Part shown: positions 19,101-31,164 of the stretch, one piece after another | How positions within the stretch are numbered: position 1 is the stretch's first letter | How the letters are laid out: each line of letters opens with the position of its first letter | NCBI GenBank assembly: GCA_003222275.1 | Contig: QHVJ01000150.1 | Coordinates: 10,518 to 74,517, forward strand | Direction: 5' to 3' | Length of the DNA stretch: 64,000 bases | From: Acidobacteriota bacterium | Lineage (GTDB): Bacteria > Acidobacteriota > Vicinamibacteria > Fen-336 | Made by a program: the position numbers and the translations under genes | The notes under the pieces: generated by a model | Told to the model about the DNA's origin: nothing | The model's database searches: none | Seen by the model: only the letters and a program-made list of their open reading frames with translations

Positions 19101-21230
19101 CTACTTGCCCCTCTTGCTCTCGGCCGGCACGGGAAATCCTCGCTTGCGCATCAGGGCGGCGATGCCGGGGTCGCGGCCGCGGAACGCGCGGTACGCTTCG
19201 GCGGGGTCCACGGTATTGCCGGCGGAGAACACGTTGTCGTGGAGCCGCTTGGCCACTGCCTTGTCGTAGGGACCGCCGGCCTCGGTGAACGCCTCCCAGG
19301 CGTCGGCAGACAGCGTGTCCGACCACAGGTAGCTGTAGTAGCCGGCCGAGTAGCCGTCGCCCGAGAACACGTGGCCGAACTGGGGCGTGCGGTGGCGCAT
19401 CACGATCTCGGACGGCATGCCGAGCGCCTTCAGCGTGTCGCGCTCGAACGCGTCGGGATCGATCGTCTGTTCCCCCGCCAGGTGCAGCTTCATGTCGACG
19501 AGCGCGCTCGCCAGGTACTCGACGGTCGCGAAGCCCTGGTTGAAGGTGGAGGCCTTCTCGATCTTGTCCACCAGCGCGGGCGGGATCGGCTGGCCGGTCT
19601 GGTAGTGGAGCGCGAAGCGGTTCAACACCTCGGGCGTCGACAGCCAGTGCTCGAGCAGCTGCGACGGGAACTCCACGTAGTCGCGGGCCACGCTCGTGCC
19701 CGACAGCGACGGGTAGCGGACCTTCGAGTTCAGGCCGTGGAGCGCGTGGCCGAACTCGTGGAAGAGCGCGATGGCGTCGTCCCACGAGATGAGGATCGGC
19801 TCGCCGGGCGGGCCCTTCACGAAGTTTGTGTTGTTGGAGACGATGGTGGTGATCGGGCGCTCGAAGCTCTCCTGGTTGCGGTAGGCGTTCATCCAGGCCC
19901 CGGAGTTCTTGCCTGTCCGCGCGTAGGGGTCGAAATACCAGAGCCCCACCAGCGTGCCGGACGGGTCGGTGACCTTGAACACGCGCATGTCCGGGTTGTA
20001 GACGGGGATGCCGTCGACCGGGGTGAAGGTGAAGCCGAACAGCTGCCCGGCCACCCAGAACATCCCCTCGCGCAGCTTCTCGAGCTGGAGGTAGGGCTTC
20101 ACCTCGTTCTGGTCGAGGTCGTACTTTGCCTTGCGCACCTTCTCGGCGTAATAGCGGTAATCCCAGGGCTCGATCTTGATCTTCGCGCCCTCCTTGTCCG
20201 CGACCGCCTGCATGTCGGCGACTTCCTCGCGGACGCGGGCCACCGCCGGCTTCCACACCGCCTCCATCAGCTCCAGGGCCCGCTCCGGGGTGCCGGCCAT
20301 CGTGTTCTCCAGCCGCCAGTGGGCGTGGGTCCGGTAGCCGAGCAGCTTCGCCCGCTCGGCGCGCAGCTTCAGGATCTCCGTGATGATCGCGTTGTTGTCG
20401 TGGGCGTCGCCGTGGTCGCCGCGGCTGTAGAAGGTGCGCCAGACCTTCTCGCGCAGGTCGCGGCGGTCGGAGTAGGTGAGGAACGGCTCCATGCTCGACC
20501 GCGTGTTGAGCACGGCCCACTTGCGCTTCTGGCCCCGCTGCTCGGCGGCGGCGGCCGCGGCGGAGCGCAGCGAGTCGGGCAGGCCGGCGAGGTCGGACTC
20601 CTGGTCGAGGAAGAGGACGTAGTCCGCCTCGTCGGCGAGCAGGTTCTGGCTGAACCTCGTGTAGAGCGCGGCCAGCCGCTGGTTGATCTCCGAGAGCCGC
20701 TTCTTGGCCGCGGGGTCGAGCCGGGCGCCCGCGCGGACGAAGTTGGTGTAGTCGAGCCACGCCAGGCGCTTCTGCTCCGAGGTGAGCTTCGCGGCGTCCC
20801 GCGCCCCGTACACCGCGGCGATGCGCGCGAAGAGCTTCTCGTTCTGCGTGATCTGGTCGGAGAACGCGGCCAGCTTCGGGGCCATCTCCTCCTCGACCTT
20901 CTGGAAGTCCGGCGTGCTCATGGTCCCGCTGTAGACGCCGAAGATCGTTCCCACGCGGTCGAGGGTGCGGCCCGAGCGTTCGAGCGCGGCCAGCGTGTTC
21001 TCGAAAGTCGGCGGTGCGGGGTCGTTCGCGATCTTGTCGACCTCGGCCAGCTGCTCCGCCATCGCCGCCGCGAGGGCGGGCTGGAAGTGCTCGACTTTCA
21101 CCTTGTCGAAGGGCGGAACGCCCCCGTAGGGTCCGGTCCACGGCGCCAGCAGCGGGTTCTGCACGGTGGCCTCCGCGGCCAGGGATGCTATCGCGACCGC
21201 ACCGGCGGTCGCGATGAGGACTCTGATCAT
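19101..21230 (-). CDS. dcp: Peptidyl-dipeptidase Dcp (M3 family zinc metallopeptidase), secreted
   Basis: Start MIRVLIATAGAVAIASLAA (signal peptide) with RBS GGAGAGG. HEFGHALHG zinc motif; M3A family length. The ORF track's longer N-terminus (to 21542) is unsupported. Confidence 0.85.
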   Translation of the reverse strand: MIRVLIATAGAVAIASLAAEATVQNPLLAPWTGPYGGVPPFDKVKVEHFQPALAAAMAEQLAEVDKIANDPAPPTFENTLAALERSGRTLDRVGTIFGVYSGTMSTPDFQKVEEEMAPKLAAFSDQITQNEKLFARIAAVYGARDAAKLTSEQKRLAWLDYTNFVRAGARLDPAAKKRLSEINQRLAALYTRFSQNLLADEADYVLFLDQESDLAGLPDSLRSAAAAAAEQRGQKRKWAVLNTRSSMEPFLTYSDRRDLREKVWRTFYSRGDHGDAHDNNAIITEILKLRAERAKLLGYRTHAHWRLENTMAGTPERALELMEAVWKPAVARVREEVADMQAVADKEGAKIKIEPWDYRYYAEKVRKAKYDLDQNEVKPYLQLEKLREGMFWVAGQLFGFTFTPVDGIPVYNPDMRVFKVTDPSGTLVGLWYFDPYARTGKNSGAWMNAYRNQESFERPITTIVSNNTNFVKGPPGEPILISWDDAIALFHEFGHALHGLNSKVRYPSLSGTSVARDYVEFPSQLLEHWLSTPEVLNRFALHYQTGQPIPPALVDKIEKASTFNQGFATVEYLASALVDMKLHLAGEQTIDPDAFERDTLKALGMPSEIVMRHRTPQFGHVFSGDGYSAGYYSYLWSDTLSADAWEAFTEAGGPYDKAVAKRLHDNVFSAGNTVDPAEAYRAFRGRDPGIAALMRKRGFPVPAESKRGK

Positions 21231-21312
21231 GTATGCCTCTCCATTATTGCCGCCCATCCAACCCCCCATTTTAGCGCGAGCCGTTGTTAAAGTTGGTGAA
21301 GGGGGAGGAACG

Positions 21313-21804
21313 ATGGCCGAGCAGGCGGAGGGCGACGCGGTCCGCGCGGGCCTGAGCGAGGCGGAGATGCGCGAGCGGGTGATCCGGCTCGCCTTCGGCG
21401 GAGATCCCCGCCGGCTGGACCAGTTCTGCGCGGCGGTCCGCGAGGCCCTCCCCCCGGACACGGCCGCCGTCCTGCGCGGGAGCGCCGTCACCGGGTACCG
21501 CCACGACGACCACGCGCCGTTCGACGCCGACGGCGCCGGCACGAGCGACCTCGACCTGACCCTGGTGGGCGACGAAGTCGTCGGGCTCTACAGCGCGTTC
21601 TGGATCCCCGGGATCAACAGCCGCCCGCTCAGCGACGAGGACCCCGACATCTGTCCCGCGCTGGTGCCGCTGCGGCGCCGCCTGATGCAGATGGTCGGGC
21701 GCCCGGTGAACATCCAGGGCACGCGCGACTGGATCATGTTCGTGCGCGAGCACCTGATGGGCCAGCCGTACCTCATGCTCGTGGGCAAGCTCGAGAGCCC
21801 GTGA
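21313..21804 (+). CDS. Minimal nucleotidyltransferase (Pol-beta superfamily)-like hypothetical protein
   Basis: Start MAEQAEG with RBS GGGGGAGGA. Pol-beta NTase signature RGSAVTG-x13-GTSDLDLTLV (GS...DhDh). Confidence 0.45.
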   Translation: MAEQAEGDAVRAGLSEAEMRERVIRLAFGGDPRRLDQFCAAVREALPPDTAAVLRGSAVTGYRHDDHAPFDADGAGTSDLDLTLVGDEVVGLYSAFWIPGINSRPLSDEDPDICPALVPLRRRLMQMVGRPVNIQGTRDWIMFVREHLMGQPYLMLVGKLESP

Positions 21805-21805
21805 G

Positions 21806-22552
21806 GTGCGGCTGCTCACCTACAACATCCGCTTCGGGGGAGCAGGGCGCGTGGGGGCGCTGGCGGCCGTCGTCAACCACTGCGCCCCCGACGTGGTGGT
21901 GCTGCAGGAGGCGACCCTTCCGCCCGTCGTCGAGCAGCTGGCCGCGGCGACCGGCATGACCGCCTGGGGCGCGCGGCCGCGGCAATCCCTCGCCTTCATG
22001 AGCCGCGTGCCCATCGCGCACCACGAGTGGCACCGCCCGCGGGCGAGCCGCCGTGCTTTCCTCGAGATCGTGCCCGCCGCCGGCTCCCTGCGGATCTTCG
22101 GCGTCCATCTGAGCGCCGTCCATTCCAACTGGACGGAGCGGCGGCGGGTGAGGGAGCTGCGCGCGATCCGGCAGGGCGTCGCTCGCTACCAGGGCGATTT
22201 CCACGTCGTCGCCGGCGACTTCAACACCCTCGCCCCCGGGGAGGAGCTGGACCTGCGCAAGCTGCCCCCGCGGCTACGGGCGATCGTCTGGCTCACGGGC
22301 CGACGGATCCGGTGGGAGACGATCCAGATCATGCTCGACGCCTCGTACGTCGACGGCTACCGTTCCCTGCACGGCCACGACCCCGGGTACACGTTCCCCA
22401 CCTGGGACCCCCACGTGCGCCTCGACTACGTGTTCGTCCCTTTCGCCTGGTCCCGGCGTCTCGCCGACTGCGCGGTCGTGAGCGACCATCCCGCGCTCGC
22501 CCAGGCCTCCGACCACCTCCCCCTGCGGGCGGAGGTGGAGCTCGAGCCTTGA
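21806..22552 (+). CDS. Endonuclease/exonuclease/phosphatase (EEP) family protein
   Basis: EEP motifs LLTYNIRFG, VVVLQEA, GDFN, SDHLPL. GTG start 2 nt after the upstream NTase stop. Confidence 0.75.
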   Translation: MRLLTYNIRFGGAGRVGALAAVVNHCAPDVVVLQEATLPPVVEQLAAATGMTAWGARPRQSLAFMSRVPIAHHEWHRPRASRRAFLEIVPAAGSLRIFGVHLSAVHSNWTERRRVRELRAIRQGVARYQGDFHVVAGDFNTLAPGEELDLRKLPPRLRAIVWLTGRRIRWETIQIMLDASYVDGYRSLHGHDPGYTFPTWDPHVRLDYVFVPFAWSRRLADCAVVSDHPALAQASDHLPLRAEVELEP

Positions 22553-22584
22553 CACCGTCCGGTTTTAGACTTAGTCTAAACAGC
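22549..22584 (+). promoter_or_regulatory. Putative sigma70-like promoter (TTGACA-17-TAGTCT) with embedded 8-1-8 palindrome TTTAGACTtAGTCTAAA (22564..22580) immediately upstream of the perR-like ATG
   Basis: Perfect inverted repeat in an AT-rich island of a 70% GC genome. The -10 lies about 7 nt before the ATG at 22585, implying a leaderless mRNA. Confidence 0.45.
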
Positions 22585-22998
22585 ATGACGCGGGACGTGC
22601 CGGGCATCCTCCGGCAGCACGGCATCCAGCCCTCGGCGCAGCGGGTGGCGGTGGCGGCCTTCGTGCTCGAGACCGAAGCCCACCCCTCGGCCGACCAGGT
22701 CTTCGCCGCCGTTCGCAAGAGGCTGCCCGTGCTGTCCCGGGCCACCGTCTACAACACGCTGCACCTGATGGTGAAGAAGGGCCTGCTGCGCGAGCTGGTG
22801 CTGGCGCCGGGCCGGGTGGTGTTCGACCCCAAGACGGGCCCCCACCACCACTTCATCGAGGAGAGGACGGGCCGCATCCACGACATCCCCTGGGAGGCGG
22901 TGGACGTGTCGCGGGTGGGCTCGCTGAAGGGGTTCGAGGTGCACGAGTACCAGGTCGTGATGAAGGGCCGCGCGGCGGGCGCTCGCCCGCGCCGGTGA
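22585..22998 (+). CDS. Fur-family transcriptional regulator, PerR-like (peroxide-responsive)
   Basis: Fur family DNA-binding and metal-binding regions (HHHF, C-terminal dimerisation domain); directly upstream of ahpC-ahpD. Confidence 0.8.
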   Translation: MTRDVPGILRQHGIQPSAQRVAVAAFVLETEAHPSADQVFAAVRKRLPVLSRATVYNTLHLMVKKGLLRELVLAPGRVVFDPKTGPHHHFIEERTGRIHDIPWEAVDVSRVGSLKGFEVHEYQVVMKGRAAGARPRR

Positions 22999-23062
22999 CG
23001 CTCTCTTTTTGGCCGCTTGATTGGACGCTGTCTAGAACTGGAAGAAGTACAAAGGAGGATCC

Positions 23063-23602
23063 ATGCTGACCGTTGGCGACAAGTTCCCGCCCTTCAAGCT
23101 CCAGGCGGTGGTGAGCCGCGAGAAGGGCCGCGAGTTCCAGGAGATCACGGAGAAGAGCCACCCCGGCCAGTGGACGGTGGCGTTCCTGTGGCCCATGGAC
23201 TTCACGTTCGTGTGCCCGACCGAGATCGCGGAGTTCGGCCGCCGCCACCGCGACTTCCAGGACCGGGACGCGCAGGTGCTGGGGATCAGCACCGACACGC
23301 ACTTCGTCCACCTCGCGTGGCGCAACGATCACGAGGACCTCCGGGACCTGCCCTTCCCGATGGTGGCCGACACGAAGCGCGAGCTGTCGTCCGCGCTCGG
23401 GGTGCTGCACAAGCAGGAGGGAGTGCCCCTGCGGGCGACCTTCATCGTCGATCCCGAGGGCACGATCCGCTTCGCCTCGGTGAACGACCTGTCGGTCGGG
23501 CGCAACGTGGACGAGGTGCTGCGGGTGCTGGACGCGCTGCAGACGGACGAGCTCTGCCCCTGCAACTGGAAGAAGGGCGAGCCCACCCTCGAGGTGGCGT
23601 GA
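23063..23602 (+). CDS. ahpC: Peroxiredoxin AhpC
   Basis: FTFVCPTE peroxidatic Cys motif; C-terminal resolving Cys (ELCPCNW). Confidence 0.85.
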   Translation: MLTVGDKFPPFKLQAVVSREKGREFQEITEKSHPGQWTVAFLWPMDFTFVCPTEIAEFGRRHRDFQDRDAQVLGISTDTHFVHLAWRNDHEDLRDLPFPMVADTKRELSSALGVLHKQEGVPLRATFIVDPEGTIRFASVNDLSVGRNVDEVLRVLDALQTDELCPCNWKKGEPTLEVA

Positions 23603-24150
23603 TGGGAACGGAGCTGGAGGCGGTCCGGGACATGCTGCCGGAGGCGGCCAAGGACATCCGCCTGAACCTGCAGTCGGTGCTGCAGGGCGGGCCGCTCACC
23701 CCGGCCCAGCGGTGGGGGACGGCCGTCGCGGCCGCCCTCGCCGCCCGCAACCCCCGACTGCGCGATGCGCTCGTGGCGGAGGCGCGGCGGGAGGTGGAAG
23801 AGGCCGTGATCGAGGACGCGCGGGCGGCGGCGGCGATCATGGCGATGAACAACGTCTACTACCGGTTCCGGCACATCGTGGGCAAGGCGTCCTACGGCGA
23901 GAAGCCGGCGCGCCTGCGCATGAACCGCCTCGTGCAGCCGGCGGGCAGCAAGGTGGACTTCGAGCTCTACGCGCTGGCGGTGAGCGCCCTCAACGGGTGC
24001 GAGACCTGCGTGCAGGCCCACGAGCGCACGGTGCTCGAGGGCGGGCTGACCGAGGACCACGTGCACGACGCCGTCCGCATCGCGGCCACGGTCAAGGCCG
24101 CGGCCGTCGCGCTGGAAATGGTGGAGGCGCCGGCGGCGATGACGGCCTAA
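23602..24150 (+). CDS. ahpD: Alkylhydroperoxidase AhpD (carboxymuconolactone decarboxylase family)
   Basis: ATGA overlap with ahpC. AhpD core LNGCETCVQAH (CxxC-H). Confidence 0.8.
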   Translation: MGTELEAVRDMLPEAAKDIRLNLQSVLQGGPLTPAQRWGTAVAAALAARNPRLRDALVAEARREVEEAVIEDARAAAAIMAMNNVYYRFRHIVGKASYGEKPARLRMNRLVQPAGSKVDFELYALAVSALNGCETCVQAHERTVLEGGLTEDHVHDAVRIAATVKAAAVALEMVEAPAAMTA

Positions 24151-25145
24151 GAGCCCGTGACGGCGCGAATCGCCAGGTAGCTGATCGCCGCCACCAGGGC
24201 GGCGAGGGGGATGGTGAGGATCCACGCCCACACGATGGTTCCCGCCACCCCCCATTTCACCGCGGAGATCCGCCGCGTGGCTCCCACCCCGATGATCGCG
24301 CCCGTGATCGTGTGCGTGGTGGACACCGGGATGCCGAGATGCGTGGCCAGGAACAGCGTGATCGCGCCGGAGGTCTCGGCGCAGAAGCCGCCGAAGGGCT
24401 GAAGCTTCGTGATCTTGGTGCCCATCGTCTTGACGATGCGCCAGCCGCCGAACATCGTGCCGAGCGCGATGGCGGCGTGGCAGGTGATGATGACCCAGAA
24501 GGGGATCTCGAAGCCCTGGTGGTAGCCGGCGGTGACGAGCAGGCCGGTGATGATGCCCATCGTCTTCTGGGCGTCGTTGCCGCCGTGGCCGAGGCTGTAG
24601 AGCGCGGCGGAGACGAGCTGCATCCGCCGGAAGAGCTGGTCGAGCCGAAAGGGGTGCCAACGCCGGAAGATCCACGTCACGGACACCATGAGGACGAAAC
24701 CCAGGAACGCGCCCATGACCGGCGCGAGCACGATGAAGATCAGGGTCTTCGTCCATCCCGAGAGAAGGATTGCGCTCGTCCCCGCCCGCGCCACGGCGGC
24801 GCCGGCGTAGCCGCCGATGAGCGCGTGCGACGAGGAGACTGGCAGCCCGTAGTACCACGTGAACAGGTTCCACGTGATGGCGCCGATGAGGCCGGCGAGG
24901 ATCACGTGCTGGTTCACGACCGTGATGTCGATCATCCCCTTGCCCATCGTCTTGGCCACGGCGGTGCCCATGACGAAGGCGGCCACGAAGTTGAAGAAGG
25001 CGGCCCACAACACCGCCTTCTGCGGAGAGAGCACGCGCGTGGAGACGACGGTGGCGATCGAGTTGGCGGCGTCGTGGAAGCCGTTCAGGAAGTCGAAGGT
25101 GAGCGCGACCAGGATGATGAAGACGACGCCGAGGTCGAAGGTCAA
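24147..25145 (-). CDS. pit: Inorganic phosphate transporter, PiT family
   Basis: PiT signature LTFDFLNGFHDAANSIATVV and internal repeat GGNDAQKTMGII. TTG start inferred at 25145, just after the upstream DUF47 stop; the ORF track's longer N-terminus would overlap DUF47. Confidence 0.8.
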   Translation of the reverse strand: MTFDLGVVFIILVALTFDFLNGFHDAANSIATVVSTRVLSPQKAVLWAAFFNFVAAFVMGTAVAKTMGKGMIDITVVNQHVILAGLIGAITWNLFTWYYGLPVSSSHALIGGYAGAAVARAGTSAILLSGWTKTLIFIVLAPVMGAFLGFVLMVSVTWIFRRWHPFRLDQLFRRMQLVSAALYSLGHGGNDAQKTMGIITGLLVTAGYHQGFEIPFWVIITCHAAIALGTMFGGWRIVKTMGTKITKLQPFGGFCAETSGAITLFLATHLGIPVSTTHTITGAIIGVGATRRISAVKWGVAGTIVWAWILTIPLAALVAAISYLAIRAVTGS

Positions 25146-25153
25146 GGCCTGGC

Positions 25154-25807
25154 TCAGGCGTTCTTCACGAGCACGTTGCCGAGGGCGTGGGTGAAGTCCT
25201 TGCACTCGTCGCAGGCGTCTTCCAGGCCCTGGTAGATCTCCTTCCACTTCATGATCTCGAGCGGCTTCTTGCCCTCGCCGCCGCGGAAGAGCTCGGCGAT
25301 CACGCTGAAGTAGACGGTGTCGGCCTCGTTCTCGAGCTGGGAGATCCGGACGATCGACTCCCGGATGACCTTGTCGTTCCCGAGGTCCCAGATGAGGGAG
25401 GTCGCCTTGTGGATCTCCTCGACCATCGACACGATGATCTCGGCGAACTTCCGCAGCGGCGGCGGGCTCTCGCCGATCTCGAACAGGATCAAGAACTGGG
25501 CCACCCCCTCCAGGTAGTCGAGGATGTCGTCGAGGTCGCTGGCGATGACGCGGATGTCCTCCCGGTCGAGCGGCGTGATGAACGTCGAGTTGAGGGCGTC
25601 GAAGATCTCCTTCGTGATCTGGTCGCCCTCGTGCTCCAGCGCCTTCAGCTCCGCCACCTTCGTCCGGCGCACGTCCAGGCTCTGGCTGGCCGCGATCTCG
25701 CCGAAGAGGCGCGCGGCCCGCAGGAGGTGCTGGGTGTCGCGGTCCAGCAGCTCGTGAAACCGCTCCTCCTTCGGCATGAAGAACTTGACGATCTTGTCGC
25801 CTCGCAT
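25154..25807 (-). CDS. DUF47 (PhoU-like, TIGR00153) Pit accessory protein
   Basis: DUF47 family organisation, upstream of and co-directional with pit. Confidence 0.8.
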   Translation of the reverse strand: MRGDKIVKFFMPKEERFHELLDRDTQHLLRAARLFGEIAASQSLDVRRTKVAELKALEHEGDQITKEIFDALNSTFITPLDREDIRVIASDLDDILDYLEGVAQFLILFEIGESPPPLRKFAEIIVSMVEEIHKATSLIWDLGNDKVIRESIVRISQLENEADTVYFSVIAELFRGGEGKKPLEIMKWKEIYQGLEDACDECKDFTHALGNVLVKNA

Positions 25808-25988
25808 GCCTCGACCCCCCTCGATACCGACGACAATGACATCGACGCTACTTTTTGGTGATGTTCCCGTGATCGTAGCACGGCCGCAATTCCTCTTGCG
25901 TTCCGGCCCCCGCCCTGCACTCGTGCCCCTGGCTCGAGCCGTCGTCGTTCCGAATGCGGCGTGCCCCGAATGCGGCTCCGCTTGATCC

Positions 25989-26024
25989 TTGACAAAACCT
26001 ATAGTTCTAGTATATTGGAACTAT
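25989..26024 (+). promoter_or_regulatory. arsR promoter/operator: TTGACA-16-TATATT with inverted repeat ATAGTTC-N10-GAACTAT overlapping the -10 and the arsR ATG
   Basis: Near-consensus sigma70 hexamers in an AT-rich island. The -10 is about 7 nt before the ATG at 26023 (leaderless); the dyad typical of ArsR/SmtB operators overlaps -10/+1. Confidence 0.5.
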
Positions 26025-26352
26025 GGATGAGAAACGGGCAGTGGCCGCCCTCGGGGCGCTGGCCCAGGAATCGCGCCTGAAAGTGTTCCGCCTCCTCGTG
26101 CGCCGAGGGCCGTCGGGCCTGGCCGCGGGCGAGATCAGCCAGCGTGTGGGCGTGCCGCCTACGACGCTTTCCTTCCATCTGGCGCAGCTGAACCGCGCCG
26201 GGCTCGTGACCTCGCGGCGAGAGGGCCGCTCCATCCTCTACGCGGCGGACTACGACGGCATGCAAACCCTGATGGGCTTCCTGGTCGACCACTGCTGCCA
26301 GGATGGAACCGGTTGCGCGCCGCCCGAAGCGGCGCCAAGGAGACGAAGATGA
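26023..26352 (+). CDS. arsR: ArsR/SmtB family metalloregulator
   Basis: HTH ArsR family (ESRLKVFRLL...GEISQRVGVPPTTLSFHLAQL). C-terminal Cys cluster CCQDGTGC. Confidence 0.85.
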   Translation: MDEKRAVAALGALAQESRLKVFRLLVRRGPSGLAAGEISQRVGVPPTTLSFHLAQLNRAGLVTSRREGRSILYAADYDGMQTLMGFLVDHCCQDGTGCAPPEAAPRRRR

Positions 26353-27167
26353 CCGAAGAGCTGGTACGGAAGGTCCGGGAGCGCTATGCCCAGATTGCCG
26401 AAGGACAGGTCAGCGGGTGCTGCGGCCCGCAGACTTCGGGGTGCGGGTCCGAGTCCGCGGTGACCCTCGGCGTCGGGTACGACGCGAGCGAGCTGGCTCT
26501 AGTGCCCGCCGAGGCGAATCTGGGCCTGGGCTGCGGCGCCCCCATCGGCTTCCTGTCGCTGAAAGCCGGCGAGACCGCTCTCGACCTCGGCTCGGGGCCG
26601 GGCCTGGACACGTTCCTCGCCGCCCGTCAGGTCGGGCCGGAGGGCCGCGTGATCGGGGTCGACATGACGCCGGCGATGCTGGAGCGCGCCCGCGCGAACG
26701 CCGCCAAGATCGGCGTCTCGCACGTGGAGTTCCGGGAGGGCCGGCTGGAGGCGCTGCCCGTCGAGAGCTCCTCGATCGACGCCGTGACCAGCAACTGCGT
26801 GATCAACCTGGTGCCGGACAAGCGGGCGGTTTTCGCGGAGATCGCGAGGGTGCTGCGGCCCGGCGGGCGCGTGGTGATCTCGGACATCCTGCTCGACGGA
26901 CGGCTTCCGGCGGTGGTCGAGCAGGACCTGCTCGCCTACGTGGGCTGCGTCTCGGGGGCGATGAGACGCGAGGAGTATTTCGCCCTCGTGGGCGCGGCCG
27001 GACTCGAGAAGGTGGAGGTCCTTCGGGACGTGGACTACCTGGCCACGCTCATCGAATCCGCCCCCGATGAGGTGGGCGCGCTCGAGGCGCGAACGGGCGT
27101 CACCCGAGAACAGGTTCTCGGTCGCGTGCACTCCGTGACCTTCCGCGCCGAGAAGCCGGCGCGCTGA
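26349..27167 (+). CDS. arsM: Arsenite S-adenosylmethionine methyltransferase ArsM
   Basis: ATGA overlap with arsR. N-terminal Cys pairs (GCCGP...GCGSE); SAM-MTase motif LDLGSGPGLD; ArsM C-terminal region. Confidence 0.8.
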   Translation: MTEELVRKVRERYAQIAEGQVSGCCGPQTSGCGSESAVTLGVGYDASELALVPAEANLGLGCGAPIGFLSLKAGETALDLGSGPGLDTFLAARQVGPEGRVIGVDMTPAMLERARANAAKIGVSHVEFREGRLEALPVESSSIDAVTSNCVINLVPDKRAVFAEIARVLRPGGRVVISDILLDGRLPAVVEQDLLAYVGCVSGAMRREEYFALVGAAGLEKVEVLRDVDYLATLIESAPDEVGALEARTGVTREQVLGRVHSVTFRAEKPAR

Positions 27168-30081: not shown

Positions 30082-31164
30082 ATGACTCGCTCCCTCCGTC
30101 GTCTCGTCGTCCTCTGGGCCGGCCTGGCCGCCGCCTGTTCGGGCGGCGGGGCGCCCCAACGTCAGACCTCGACGCTGCCGGCCGGCGAAGCGTCCGCCGG
30201 TCCCTCGGCCGCTCCGGGGCAGATCAACGGCGCGGGCGCCACGTTCCCGTACCCCATCTACTCGAAGTGGTTCTCGGAGTACAACAAGATCCGTCCCGAC
30301 GTCCGGATCAACTACCAGTCGATCGGCTCGGGCGGCGGCATCCGCCAGCTCACCAACCAGACGGTCTTCTTCGGCGCCACCGACGGGCCCATGACCGAAG
30401 AGCAGCTGAAGGCCGCTCCGGGCCCGATCGTCCACCTGCCCACGGTCCTGGGGGGCGTGGTGCCCGCCTACAACCTGTCCGGCCTTTCCGCCGAGCTGCG
30501 CTTCAGCGGGCCCCTCCTCGCCGACATCTTCCTGGGCAAGGTCAAGAAGTGGAACGACCCGGCCGTGGCCAGGGAAAACGCGGGCGCGAAGCTTCCCGCC
30601 ATGGACATCACCGTCGTGCATCGTTCGGACGGCTCGGGCACCACCTACATCTGGGTGGATTACCTCTCGAAGGTCTCGCCGGAGTGGAAGGACCGGGTCG
30701 GGGTGGCGACGTCGGTGAACTGGCCGGTGGGCGTGGGCGGGAAGGGCAACGAGGGCGTGGCCGGCCTCGTCAAGCAGACGCCGGGATCCATCGGCTACGT
30801 CGAGCTGATCTACGCCACCCAGAACAACATCGCCTACGGCTCGGTGAAGAACGCGGCCGGCAAGTACGTGAAGGCCTCCCTGCCCTCGGTGACGGCGGCG
30901 GCCGCCTCCAGCGTCGACACGATGCCGGCCGACTTCCGCGTCTCGATCACGAACGCTCCCGGGGAGGACGCGTATCCGATCTCGTCCTACACCTGGCTGC
31001 TCCTCTACGAGCATCCCGCGGACAAGGAACGCGCGCGCATCATCGTGGACTTCATGAAGTGGGCCCTCACGGGCGGCCAGAAGTACGCGCCCGAGCTCGG
31101 CTACGCGCCCCTGCCCGAGAAGGTCGTCGGGCGGGAGCTCGAAGCCCTCACGAAGATCGGATAG
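30082..31164 (+). CDS. pstS: Phosphate ABC transporter substrate-binding protein PstS (second paralog, lipoprotein-type signal)
   Basis: About 80% identical to the upstream PstS over the mature domain; lipobox LAAAC. Confidence 0.9.
   Translation: MTRSLRRLVVLWAGLAAACSGGGAPQRQTSTLPAGEASAGPSAAPGQINGAGATFPYPIYSKWFSEYNKIRPDVRINYQSIGSGGGIRQLTNQTVFFGATDGPMTEEQLKAAPGPIVHLPTVLGGVVPAYNLSGLSAELRFSGPLLADIFLGKVKKWNDPAVARENAGAKLPAMDITVVHRSDGSGTTYIWVDYLSKVSPEWKDRVGVATSVNWPVGVGGKGNEGVAGLVKQTPGSIGYVELIYATQNNIAYGSVKNAAGKYVKASLPSVTAAAASSVDTMPADFRVSITNAPGEDAYPISSYTWLLLYEHPADKERARIIVDFMKWALTGGQKYAPELGYAPLPEKVVGRELEALTKIG

Follow-up and report, generated by a model that had tools for sequence, protein, structure and literature searches.

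What controls the Fur-family regulator gene (22585..22998, plus strand) that precedes ahpC and ahpD in a 64,000-nt stretch of an Acidobacteriota bacterium genome (assembly GCA_003222275.1, contig QHVJ01000150.1; the whole stretch is called the window here), and to which signal would that control respond? An earlier reading of the letters alone (the original prediction) had pointed to an AT-rich, Per-box-like palindrome overlapping the promoter of a leaderless mRNA for a PerR-like regulator. The best explanation, and a likely one, is an autorepressed, leaderless, PerR-like peroxide switch, in which the same repressor would also occupy a second pair of boxes before ahpC-ahpD and peroxide would cause derepression.

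The palindrome at 22564-22580 is a perfect 8-1-8 dyad, TTTAGACT-T-AGTCTAAA (= TTTAGACTTAGTCTAAA), with arms at 22564-71 and 22573-80 and the centre T at 22572, just as originally described. In the window, whose G+C content is 70%, it was single-copy even when up to 3 mismatches were allowed, and 0 of 100 dinucleotide shuffles gave a match. Among the 22 perfect palindromes of the window with arms of at least 8 bp, the dyad was the sole one with an A+T content of at least 50%, and first-order Markov simulations produced no AT-rich palindrome (0/30). Its 15-bp core, TTAGAC-N3-GTCTAA at 22565-79 (box B, the putative main operator), scored 34.9 bits with a position weight matrix (PWM) that was built without the window and its close relatives. 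A function of the dyad as a hairpin or terminator was ruled out: the 8-bp AT stem with a 1-nt loop is unable to fold, no T-run accompanies it and transcription is predicted to start downstream of the dyad. The Rfam scan of the whole window returned no family at the gathering score.

The promoter-region sequence reads ...gagccTTGACAccgtccggtTTTAGACTTAGTCTAAAcagcATGacg... and places the dyad between the -35 hexamer TTGACA (22549-22554) and the regulator ATG (22585-87), all on the plus strand. The putative -10 hexamer TAGTCT (22572-77) follows the -35 after a 17-nt spacer and is formed by the dyad centre and right arm. Seven bases (AAACAGC) separate it from the ATG and hold no GGAGG-like run, and hence the placement of the dyad, the 7-nt distance to the start codon and the missing Shine-Dalgarno (SD) sequence were all borne out as first described. 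Counted from the final base of TAGTCT, the A of the ATG is the eighth nucleotide, the distance of a leaderless promoter, and the predicted transcription start, 7-8 nt downstream of the -10, is at 22584..22585, which is this A or the base before it. A weak box, CTTGACACCGTCCGG (box A, 22548..22562), overlaps the -35, and its centre lies 17 bp upstream of that of the main dyad. The promoter also overlaps the end of a coding region, as the TGA stop codon (22550-52) of the upstream neighbour, a co-oriented endonuclease/exonuclease/phosphatase-family gene (21806-22552), lies inside TTGACA.

Related loci, 10 from species-representative genomes and 80 from metagenomes (84 in the non-redundant set), were aligned on the best box upstream of each regulator gene. 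The species-representative metagenome-assembled genomes (MAGs) are labelled Acidobacteriota, Thermoanaerobaculia, Binatia and 'Deltaproteobacteria', with single ones labelled Aquabacterium, Fibrobacteraceae, Papillibacter and Porphyromonadaceae. Anaeromyxobacteraceae MAGs and soil metagenomes are also among the origins, and one metagenome locus (L011) is a soil contig 100% identical to the window locus. The module TTGAC(a/g)-N10-TTAGAC-N3-(G/A/T)TCTAA was found ahead of the regulator in 70 of the 84 loci with at most 2 mismatches over the 12 box positions of TTAGAC-N3-GTCTAA (0 mismatches in 23 loci, 1 in 35 and 2 in 12). The count matrix of these 70 loci showed C-TTGAC-(A/G) at positions -17..-11, T, C and A at -7, -6 and -4, and TTAGAC-tTA-(G/A/T)TCTAA at 0..14. 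TTGAC stood at a fixed distance from the box in 65-68 of the 70, and the hexamer TAgTCT (box positions 7-12) lay exactly 17 nt after TTGACr, with T1 kept in 45, A2 in 60 and T6 in 69 loci. Besides C-TTGAC, the T at -7 (57/70), the C at -6 (57/70) and the A at -4 (52/70) were conserved, and the sigma-70 consensus does not account for them. The central TA of the box was not kept in the boxes before ahpC or katG, as expected if the dyad doubles as a -10 at the regulator promoter only. The gene upstream of the regulator in the window was matched in only 3 other loci (L011, L013 and L014), with at least 400 nt of upstream sequence available in 73. As the loci show unrelated sequences upstream of the -35, the module belongs to the regulator gene.

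Counted from the last base of the -10 hexamer, the first in-frame ATG or GTG followed after 7 nt in 26 loci and after 8 nt in a further 26 (52/70), and the start codon was 6-12 nt away in 62 of the 70. No SD-like 4-mer of AGGAGG was found in the 15 nt from -18 to -4 before the regulator start in any of the 70 loci, and the N-termini of 40 homologues coincide at the regulator Met. That dozens of diverged loci keep the canonical -10-to-+1 distance to the start codon, without SD, would be difficult to account for if transcription and translation did not both begin at this codon. This layout gives strong indirect support to a leaderless regulator mRNA, as the original prediction had proposed. A comparable case is mycobacterial furA, upstream of katG, whose transcript has a 5' end that coincides with the initiation codon (PMC2358910).

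Each of the two promoters carries two 15-bp boxes set 2 bp apart, at 22548-62 and 22565-79 before the regulator and at 23021-35 and 23038-52 before ahpC. The mean PWM score in relation to the offset from the regulator box showed a sharp peak at -17 (-1.2, versus about -30 to -40 elsewhere), and the sole peak from the ahpC-type box was at +17 (+6.9, with at least 5 bits in 26 of 39 loci). At the regulator promoter, the -35 falls in the weak box and the -10 in the strong box. The weak boxes of the window are poor alone, so the tandem arrangement rests on the relatives, and it is from these that we infer box A in the window, given its poor own score.

Variant layouts were also observed. A subgroup comprising L033 and L056, and also L029 and L062, lacks the standard layout. 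In L033, the box TTAGAAGCGTTCTAG abuts the GTG start (~904), so that the left arm rather than the right would act as the -10, and both L033 and L056 have a strong extra box (at 753 and 2362, respectively) 140-150 nt upstream of the regulator gene. In the region ~20-45 nt ahead of the regulator start in L001, L007, L016, L022, L040 and L084, the -35 lies within a strong box (e.g. cTTGACAttGTCTAA) and the box over the -10 is the weaker one. The order of strong and weak box is thus opposite to that in the window, with the 17-bp period unchanged.

Downstream of the regulator, after a gap of 64 nt, lie ahpC, encoding a peroxiredoxin (23063..23602, plus strand; PF00578 128.6 bits, TIGR03137 under its cut-off), and an ahpD-family alkylhydroperoxidase gene (23611..24150, plus strand; PF02627, TIGR00777 174 bits versus a cut-off of 192). 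Box 2, TTGGACGCTGTCTAG (23021..23035; PWM-scored site 23020-23036), ends 27 nt before the ahpC ATG and scored 16.6 bits, above the maximum of 12.9 in 20 shuffles. The weak box 3, CTGGAAGAAGTACAA (23038..23052; 8.2 bits), begins exactly 17 bp after box 2. A strong SD sequence precedes ahpC on the plus strand (GGAGG, 23054..23058; AAAGGAGGA), and aGGAG is conserved at this place in the related loci. The box variant TTGGAC..TCTAG of box 2 is also present in the close relatives L012 and L014. The PWM scan of the 64-kb window returned no significant box beyond the dyad and box 2. A site at 31160 (8.8 bits) was rejected, as it is within the shuffle range, lies where a gene ends and has no stress gene beside it.

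In the related loci, the gene after the regulator was ahpC-ahpD in most cases, and otherwise ahpD alone, katG or a gene for a monofunctional catalase, a Dps-type ferritin-like protein or rubrerythrin. In 39 of 57 such loci, the intergenic region after the regulator contained a box with no more than 2 mismatches, and the usual distance from the box end to the start codon was 27-35 nt. The PWM gave 147 hits of 14 bits or more across 307 kb of related loci, and 145 of these fell either in the regulator promoter or no further than 300 nt beyond the stop codon of the regulator gene. Some circularity enters this count, as sites from these two locations had served to train the matrix; that hardly any hits turned up elsewhere in the 307 kb is informative nonetheless. 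What the boxes before peroxide-defence genes indicate is an association with PerR-type target genes, not regulation. Further copies upstream of oxidative-stress genes, which the original prediction had expected, were thus found, as a degenerate box before ahpC in the window and as boxes before ahpC, ahpD, katG, catalase, dps and rubrerythrin genes in orthologous loci. The proposed control of both the regulator and ahpC-ahpD by the dyad stood in part: boxes are present at both, and direct control of ahpC-ahpD by the first box is not required, as a separate box pair and probably a separate promoter stand before these genes.

The regulator-ahpC gap also contains a T-run, TTTTT + TTGGCC (23006..23014, plus strand), which could be the tail of a regulator terminator, a part of the ahpC promoter with a candidate -35, or both. 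The hairpin between the regulator and ahpC in the window folds no better than shuffles (z = 0.9), and a terminator-like hairpin abutting the T-run was found in 9 of 39 loci. In the window, 10 nt lie between the T-run and box 2. This distance is a constant 9-10 nt in many loci, and the layout T-run/box/NN/box recurs in relatives; the constant distance suggests that the T-run contributes to the ahpC promoter, whether in addition to a terminator or in place of one. A plausible ahpC promoter in some relatives would have TTGnnn as its -35, placed where the T-run ends, and TAAnnT across boxes 2 and 3; the window version, TTGGCC-18-TAGAAC, is weak, and the scheme is offered as an idea only.

Eight loci (L037, L038, L043, L049, L050, L055, L057 and L075) have ahpD without ahpC after the regulator. 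In L037 (2936-3016) and L038 (2963-3043), a remnant matching only AhpC residues 149-175 suggests loss of ahpC. Frameshifts appear to split or truncate ahpD in L005 (4072-4579), a short open reading frame (ORF) of no detected family after box 2 in L002 (3484-3717) and ahpC in L067 (1818-2353), and are probably MAG or metagenome assembly errors.

The regulator has 137 aa and matched the Fur-family model PF01475 with 67.3 bits (cut-off 23.1), which places it in the Fur family. The top NCBIfam match was IrrA (85.2 bits versus a cut-off of 150), and the scores with the other models were 84.7 for PerRA (cut-off 200), 82.5 for Irr (170), 73.8 for PerRB (250), 68.7 for the Clostridia-type PerR model (180) and 58.1 for the Thermus-type PerR model (200). 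In the HMMER alignment, H33, D81, H87, H89 and D100 match H37, D85, H91, H93 and D104 of B. subtilis PerR, and all five regulatory-site ligands are invariant across 40 homologues. Equally invariant is N57 (ATVYN57TL), which aligns with the Asn of the PerR recognition helix H4 (ATVYN61NL); an Asn in H4 where Fur has Arg is a marker of the PerR type (PMC8638967). The HHH motif at 87-89 is present and invariant as well. The protein has zero cysteines, with E92 and T95 at the positions of PerR C96 and C99 and no C-terminal CxxC; therefore it lacks the structural Zn(Cys)4 site that classical PerR has, and also the haem regulatory Cys-Pro motif.

By sequence, the closest solved relatives are Leptospira interrogans PerR (5NL9, 68.6 bits) and B. 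subtilis PerR (2FE3/3F8N). The AlphaFold model of the regulator (pLDDT 86) has the winged-helix and dimerisation-domain fold and matched PerR-Zn-Mn 3F8N, Leptospira PerR 5NL9 and DNA-bound Magnetospirillum Fur with TM scores of 0.74-0.78. Rhizobium IrrA and Microvirga Irr are 31-33% identical to the regulator and retain the same five ligands; as these ligands are common to PerR and Irr, sequence alone cannot separate peroxide from haem or iron sensing. The family comprises 4649 database clusters at E <= 1e-10, a threshold that also lets in other PerR/Irr-type proteins; nearly all are metagenomic, and their automatic annotation is often 'iron response regulator'. Judged by these features, the regulator is a cysteine-free PerR/Irr-type protein between the subfamilies, not a canonical PerR. 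Its earlier description as PerR-like is justified by the PerR ligands and the helix Asn; it does not extend to a canonical PerR, as the protein is cysteine-free and under the curated cut-offs.

The box itself was compared with two known operators. With the B. subtilis Per box, TTATAAT-N-ATTATAA (quoted in PMC545781), the window dyad shares the 7-1-7 geometry and 10 of the 14 specified positions, half-site positions 4 and 6 being different. With the iron control element (ICE) of alpha-proteobacterial Irr, TTTAGAA-N3-TTCTAAA (PMC1698941), it agrees at 12 of 14 positions. The inner base of the half-site is C/G instead of A/T in most loci, several relatives have the ICE-type right arm TTCTAA, and L063 has a perfect ICE (TTAGAATCATTCTAA). 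The Per-box likeness seen at the outset thus holds for the geometry and most positions, with the ICE being nearer. The exact box strings were not found in the searchable literature.

From these features we infer how the switch would work. For the cysteine-free Fur-family repressor of PerR/Irr type encoded next to it, the dyad would be the main operator of autoregulation, with the promoter built into the operator, the -35 within the weak box and the -10 made up of central and right-arm bases of the strong one. A dimer of the metal-loaded repressor, and probably a pair of dimers side by side 17 bp apart, would bind there and occlude RNA polymerase, since both promoter elements lie in the boxes. 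On release, transcription would start at the A of the ATG or 1 nt before, giving a leaderless mRNA to be translated without SD. A second box pair with the same 17-bp spacing stands before ahpC-ahpD, so the peroxidase genes would be under repression by the same protein. Peroxide is the most probable signal and would be sensed in the PerR manner: a histidine ligand of the conserved His3Asp2 site would undergo metal-catalysed oxidation, the repressor would be released, and the regulator and ahpC-ahpD units would both be derepressed.

Several observations weigh against such a peroxide switch. The regulator falls under every curated PerR and Irr cut-off, genuine Irr proteins conserve its five metal ligands just as well (see also PMC8638967) and the box is nearer the ICE than the Per box. 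Box A scored -5.9 bits in the window and is weak alone, and box 3 is not significant alone. The generic sigma-70 scan called no promoter at the dyad, because TAGTCT agrees with TATAAT at only 3 of 6 positions (T1, A2 and T6) and is a weak -10 by the E. coli consensus. The weak -10 and the silent scan would suit a regulator mRNA with a normal leader, made by read-through or from another promoter upstream, or a downstream start codon, the dyad then being a roadblock or an ordinary upstream operator; the co-oriented upstream gene ends only 32 nt before the ATG, and codon 5 is an in-frame GTG. We consider this improbable, because the TTGAC-17 nt-TAnnnT spacing is kept in ~65-68 of 70 loci, a first in-frame start 7-8 nt after the hexamer in 52 of them is hard to explain otherwise, SD is found in 0/70 regulator loci versus a strong SD at ahpC, the upstream gene varies between loci and the homologue N-termini align at this Met. 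Scarcely credible is that the boxes are bound by another factor, e.g. an OxyR-like LysR protein, or that the palindrome is a chance or structural feature. LysR-type sites have T-N11-A and the OxyR core is ATAG-N7-CTAT, and TTAGAC-N3-GTCTAA does hold T-N11-A and a similar TAG-N7-CTA. However, the boxes co-occur with the regulator gene in ~70 loci of several phyla, at its own promoter; their tandem period is 17 bp, versus 22 bp for OxyR sites; the motif is nearly the ICE bound by homologous Irr; and no LysR-type regulator was found among the ORFs Pfam-scanned at 19101-27167, a few of which had no Pfam match. Chance is ruled out by the shuffles and the Markov simulations, and with a loop of just 1 nt the 8-bp AT stem could not serve as a hairpin terminator.

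The nearness of the box to the ICE bears on a different alternative, in which the operator and protein are the same and the signal is not: an Irr-like regulator would sense iron or haem and, under iron scarcity, repress proteins that contain iron or haem or that store iron. Deletion of irr in Rhodobacter sphaeroides is reported to raise peroxide resistance (PMC3413700), which would fit. Some relatives have perfect ICE half-sites (L063), IrrA is the best NCBIfam match, the HHH motif is present, the structural Cys4 site is absent as in Irr, and KatG, catalase, Dps and rubrerythrin are haem or iron proteins. We nevertheless regard Irr-like sensing as unlikely. By far the commonest neighbour is ahpC-ahpD, which needs neither iron nor haem, and ahpC, katG, catalase, dps and rubrerythrin together make up the classical PerR regulon of B. 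subtilis. The Irr and IrrA scores are far under their cut-offs (82.5 versus 170 and 85 versus 150, respectively), a protein without Cys lacks the Cys-Pro haem regulatory motif, and two real irr genes that were inspected had neither such a promoter-operator module nor adjoining peroxide genes.

The PerR-like peroxide switch was also set beside known systems. B. subtilis PerR, for which perR autoregulation is known, has in common with the regulator the Fur fold, the five ligands, the recognition-helix Asn and targets of the catalase/ahp/dps type. It differs in its Zn(Cys)4 site, in sequence (~29% identity), in half-site positions 4/6, which are T and A versus G and C here, and in having ahpF as its partner where the regulator locus has ahpD. 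Leptospira interrogans PerRA (5NL9), the best solved relative by sequence, likewise has no CxxC motifs; it differs in phylum, in identity (~30%) and in that the regulator scores 84.7 versus the PerRA cut-off of 200. To our knowledge, neither a leaderless arrangement nor tandem 17-bp boxes have been described for perRA. Both Leptospira PerRA/B and Irr lack the Zn(Cys)4 structural site, and the autoregulatory sequences of the cysteine-free PerRA are reported to resemble Irr boxes, not Per boxes (PMC8638967).

Irr and IrrA share with the regulator the 7-3-7 box layout, the HHH motif, the Asp and Asn markers and a cysteine-free C-terminal part. Irr is limited to alpha-proteobacteria (PMC8638967) and is connected with iron and haem genes, whereas the regulator family is non-alpha-proteobacterial and adjoins peroxide-defence genes. 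At the two irr genes inspected, no ICE or autoregulatory box and no promoter-in-operator module was found, and no peroxide genes were alongside; the regulator, in contrast, would be tightly autoregulated by its operator-embedded promoter. Mycobacterial FurA-katG resembles the window locus in that a leaderless Fur-family gene lies directly upstream of a peroxide-detoxifying gene, and differs in the Fur subfamily and the operator, and in that the neighbours here are mostly ahpC-ahpD with their own boxes. The delta-proteobacterial PerR operators (Rodionov et al. 2004) are also lineage-specific palindromes, with perR beside peroxide genes. The Desulfovibrio consensus AwnAGnAAtngTTnCTnwT has the TAG..A-N3-T..CTA frame in common with the box (Rodionov et al. 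2004, PMC545781), and TTAGAC-N3-GTCTAA is not among the delta-proteobacterial consensus sequences listed there. The Geobacter PerR box overlaps a -10 (PMC545781), and according to the Fig. 11 legend of the same paper the Geobacter perR genes have predicted SD boxes, unlike the window regulator.

Taken as a mechanism, the locus is a well-preserved but essentially ordinary oxidative-stress switch, since Fur-family autorepression through a promoter-overlapping dyad is a known type. The expected mechanism is standard Fur-family promoter occlusion and would therefore be tidy rather than surprising to a specialist. What appears noteworthy is the ICE-like box outside alpha-proteobacteria and the strictly conserved layout, predicted to be leaderless, with tandem 17-bp boxes. 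The analysis yields a testable operator consensus, cTTGACr-N10-TTAGAC-N3-GTCTAA with tandem pairs 17 bp apart, and a predicted peroxide regulon (ahpCD, katG, catalase, dps and rubrerythrin) for a clade that is abundant in soil metagenomes and has thousands of homologues and no characterised member. It would extend ICE-like boxes and cysteine-free PerR/Irr-type proteins beyond alpha-proteobacteria and spirochaetes, and would add a conserved case of a leaderless regulator mRNA outside Actinobacteria. A more far-reaching and rather speculative idea is that of a large, uncharacterised, cysteine-free PerR-Irr intermediate clade in soil Acidobacteriota, Myxococcota-like and allied phyla, with the window regulator as its type example. 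In this clade, an ICE-type operator, regarded so far as an alpha-proteobacterial format, would run a PerR-type peroxide regulon with tandem dimers at a strict 17-bp period, the -35 and -10 within the operator and obligatory leaderless transcription. The leaderless mRNA would then perhaps keep the repressor translatable under oxidative stress, and such a clade, if real, would show how Irr evolved from a peroxide sensor.

Several features of the wider neighbourhood were also recorded. At 26023-27167 (plus strand), a gene for an ArsR-type helix-turn-helix regulator overlaps a gene for an S-adenosylmethionine-dependent methyltransferase, possibly an arsenic or metalloid methylation pair, with no box nearby. 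ARAGORN reported a 'tRNA-???' with a four-base anticodon (cctg) at 26519-26609, inside the methyltransferase ORF (26313-27167); Rfam finds nothing there, so this call is probably a false positive. A PiT-type phosphate transporter and a PhoU-like DUF47 protein are encoded on the minus strand at 24147-25807, again with no box nearby. On the other side of the regulator, between an M3 peptidase gene and the phosphatase-family gene, lies a 212-aa ORF (21166-21804) that has no Pfam match and is conserved in L011 and partly in L014.

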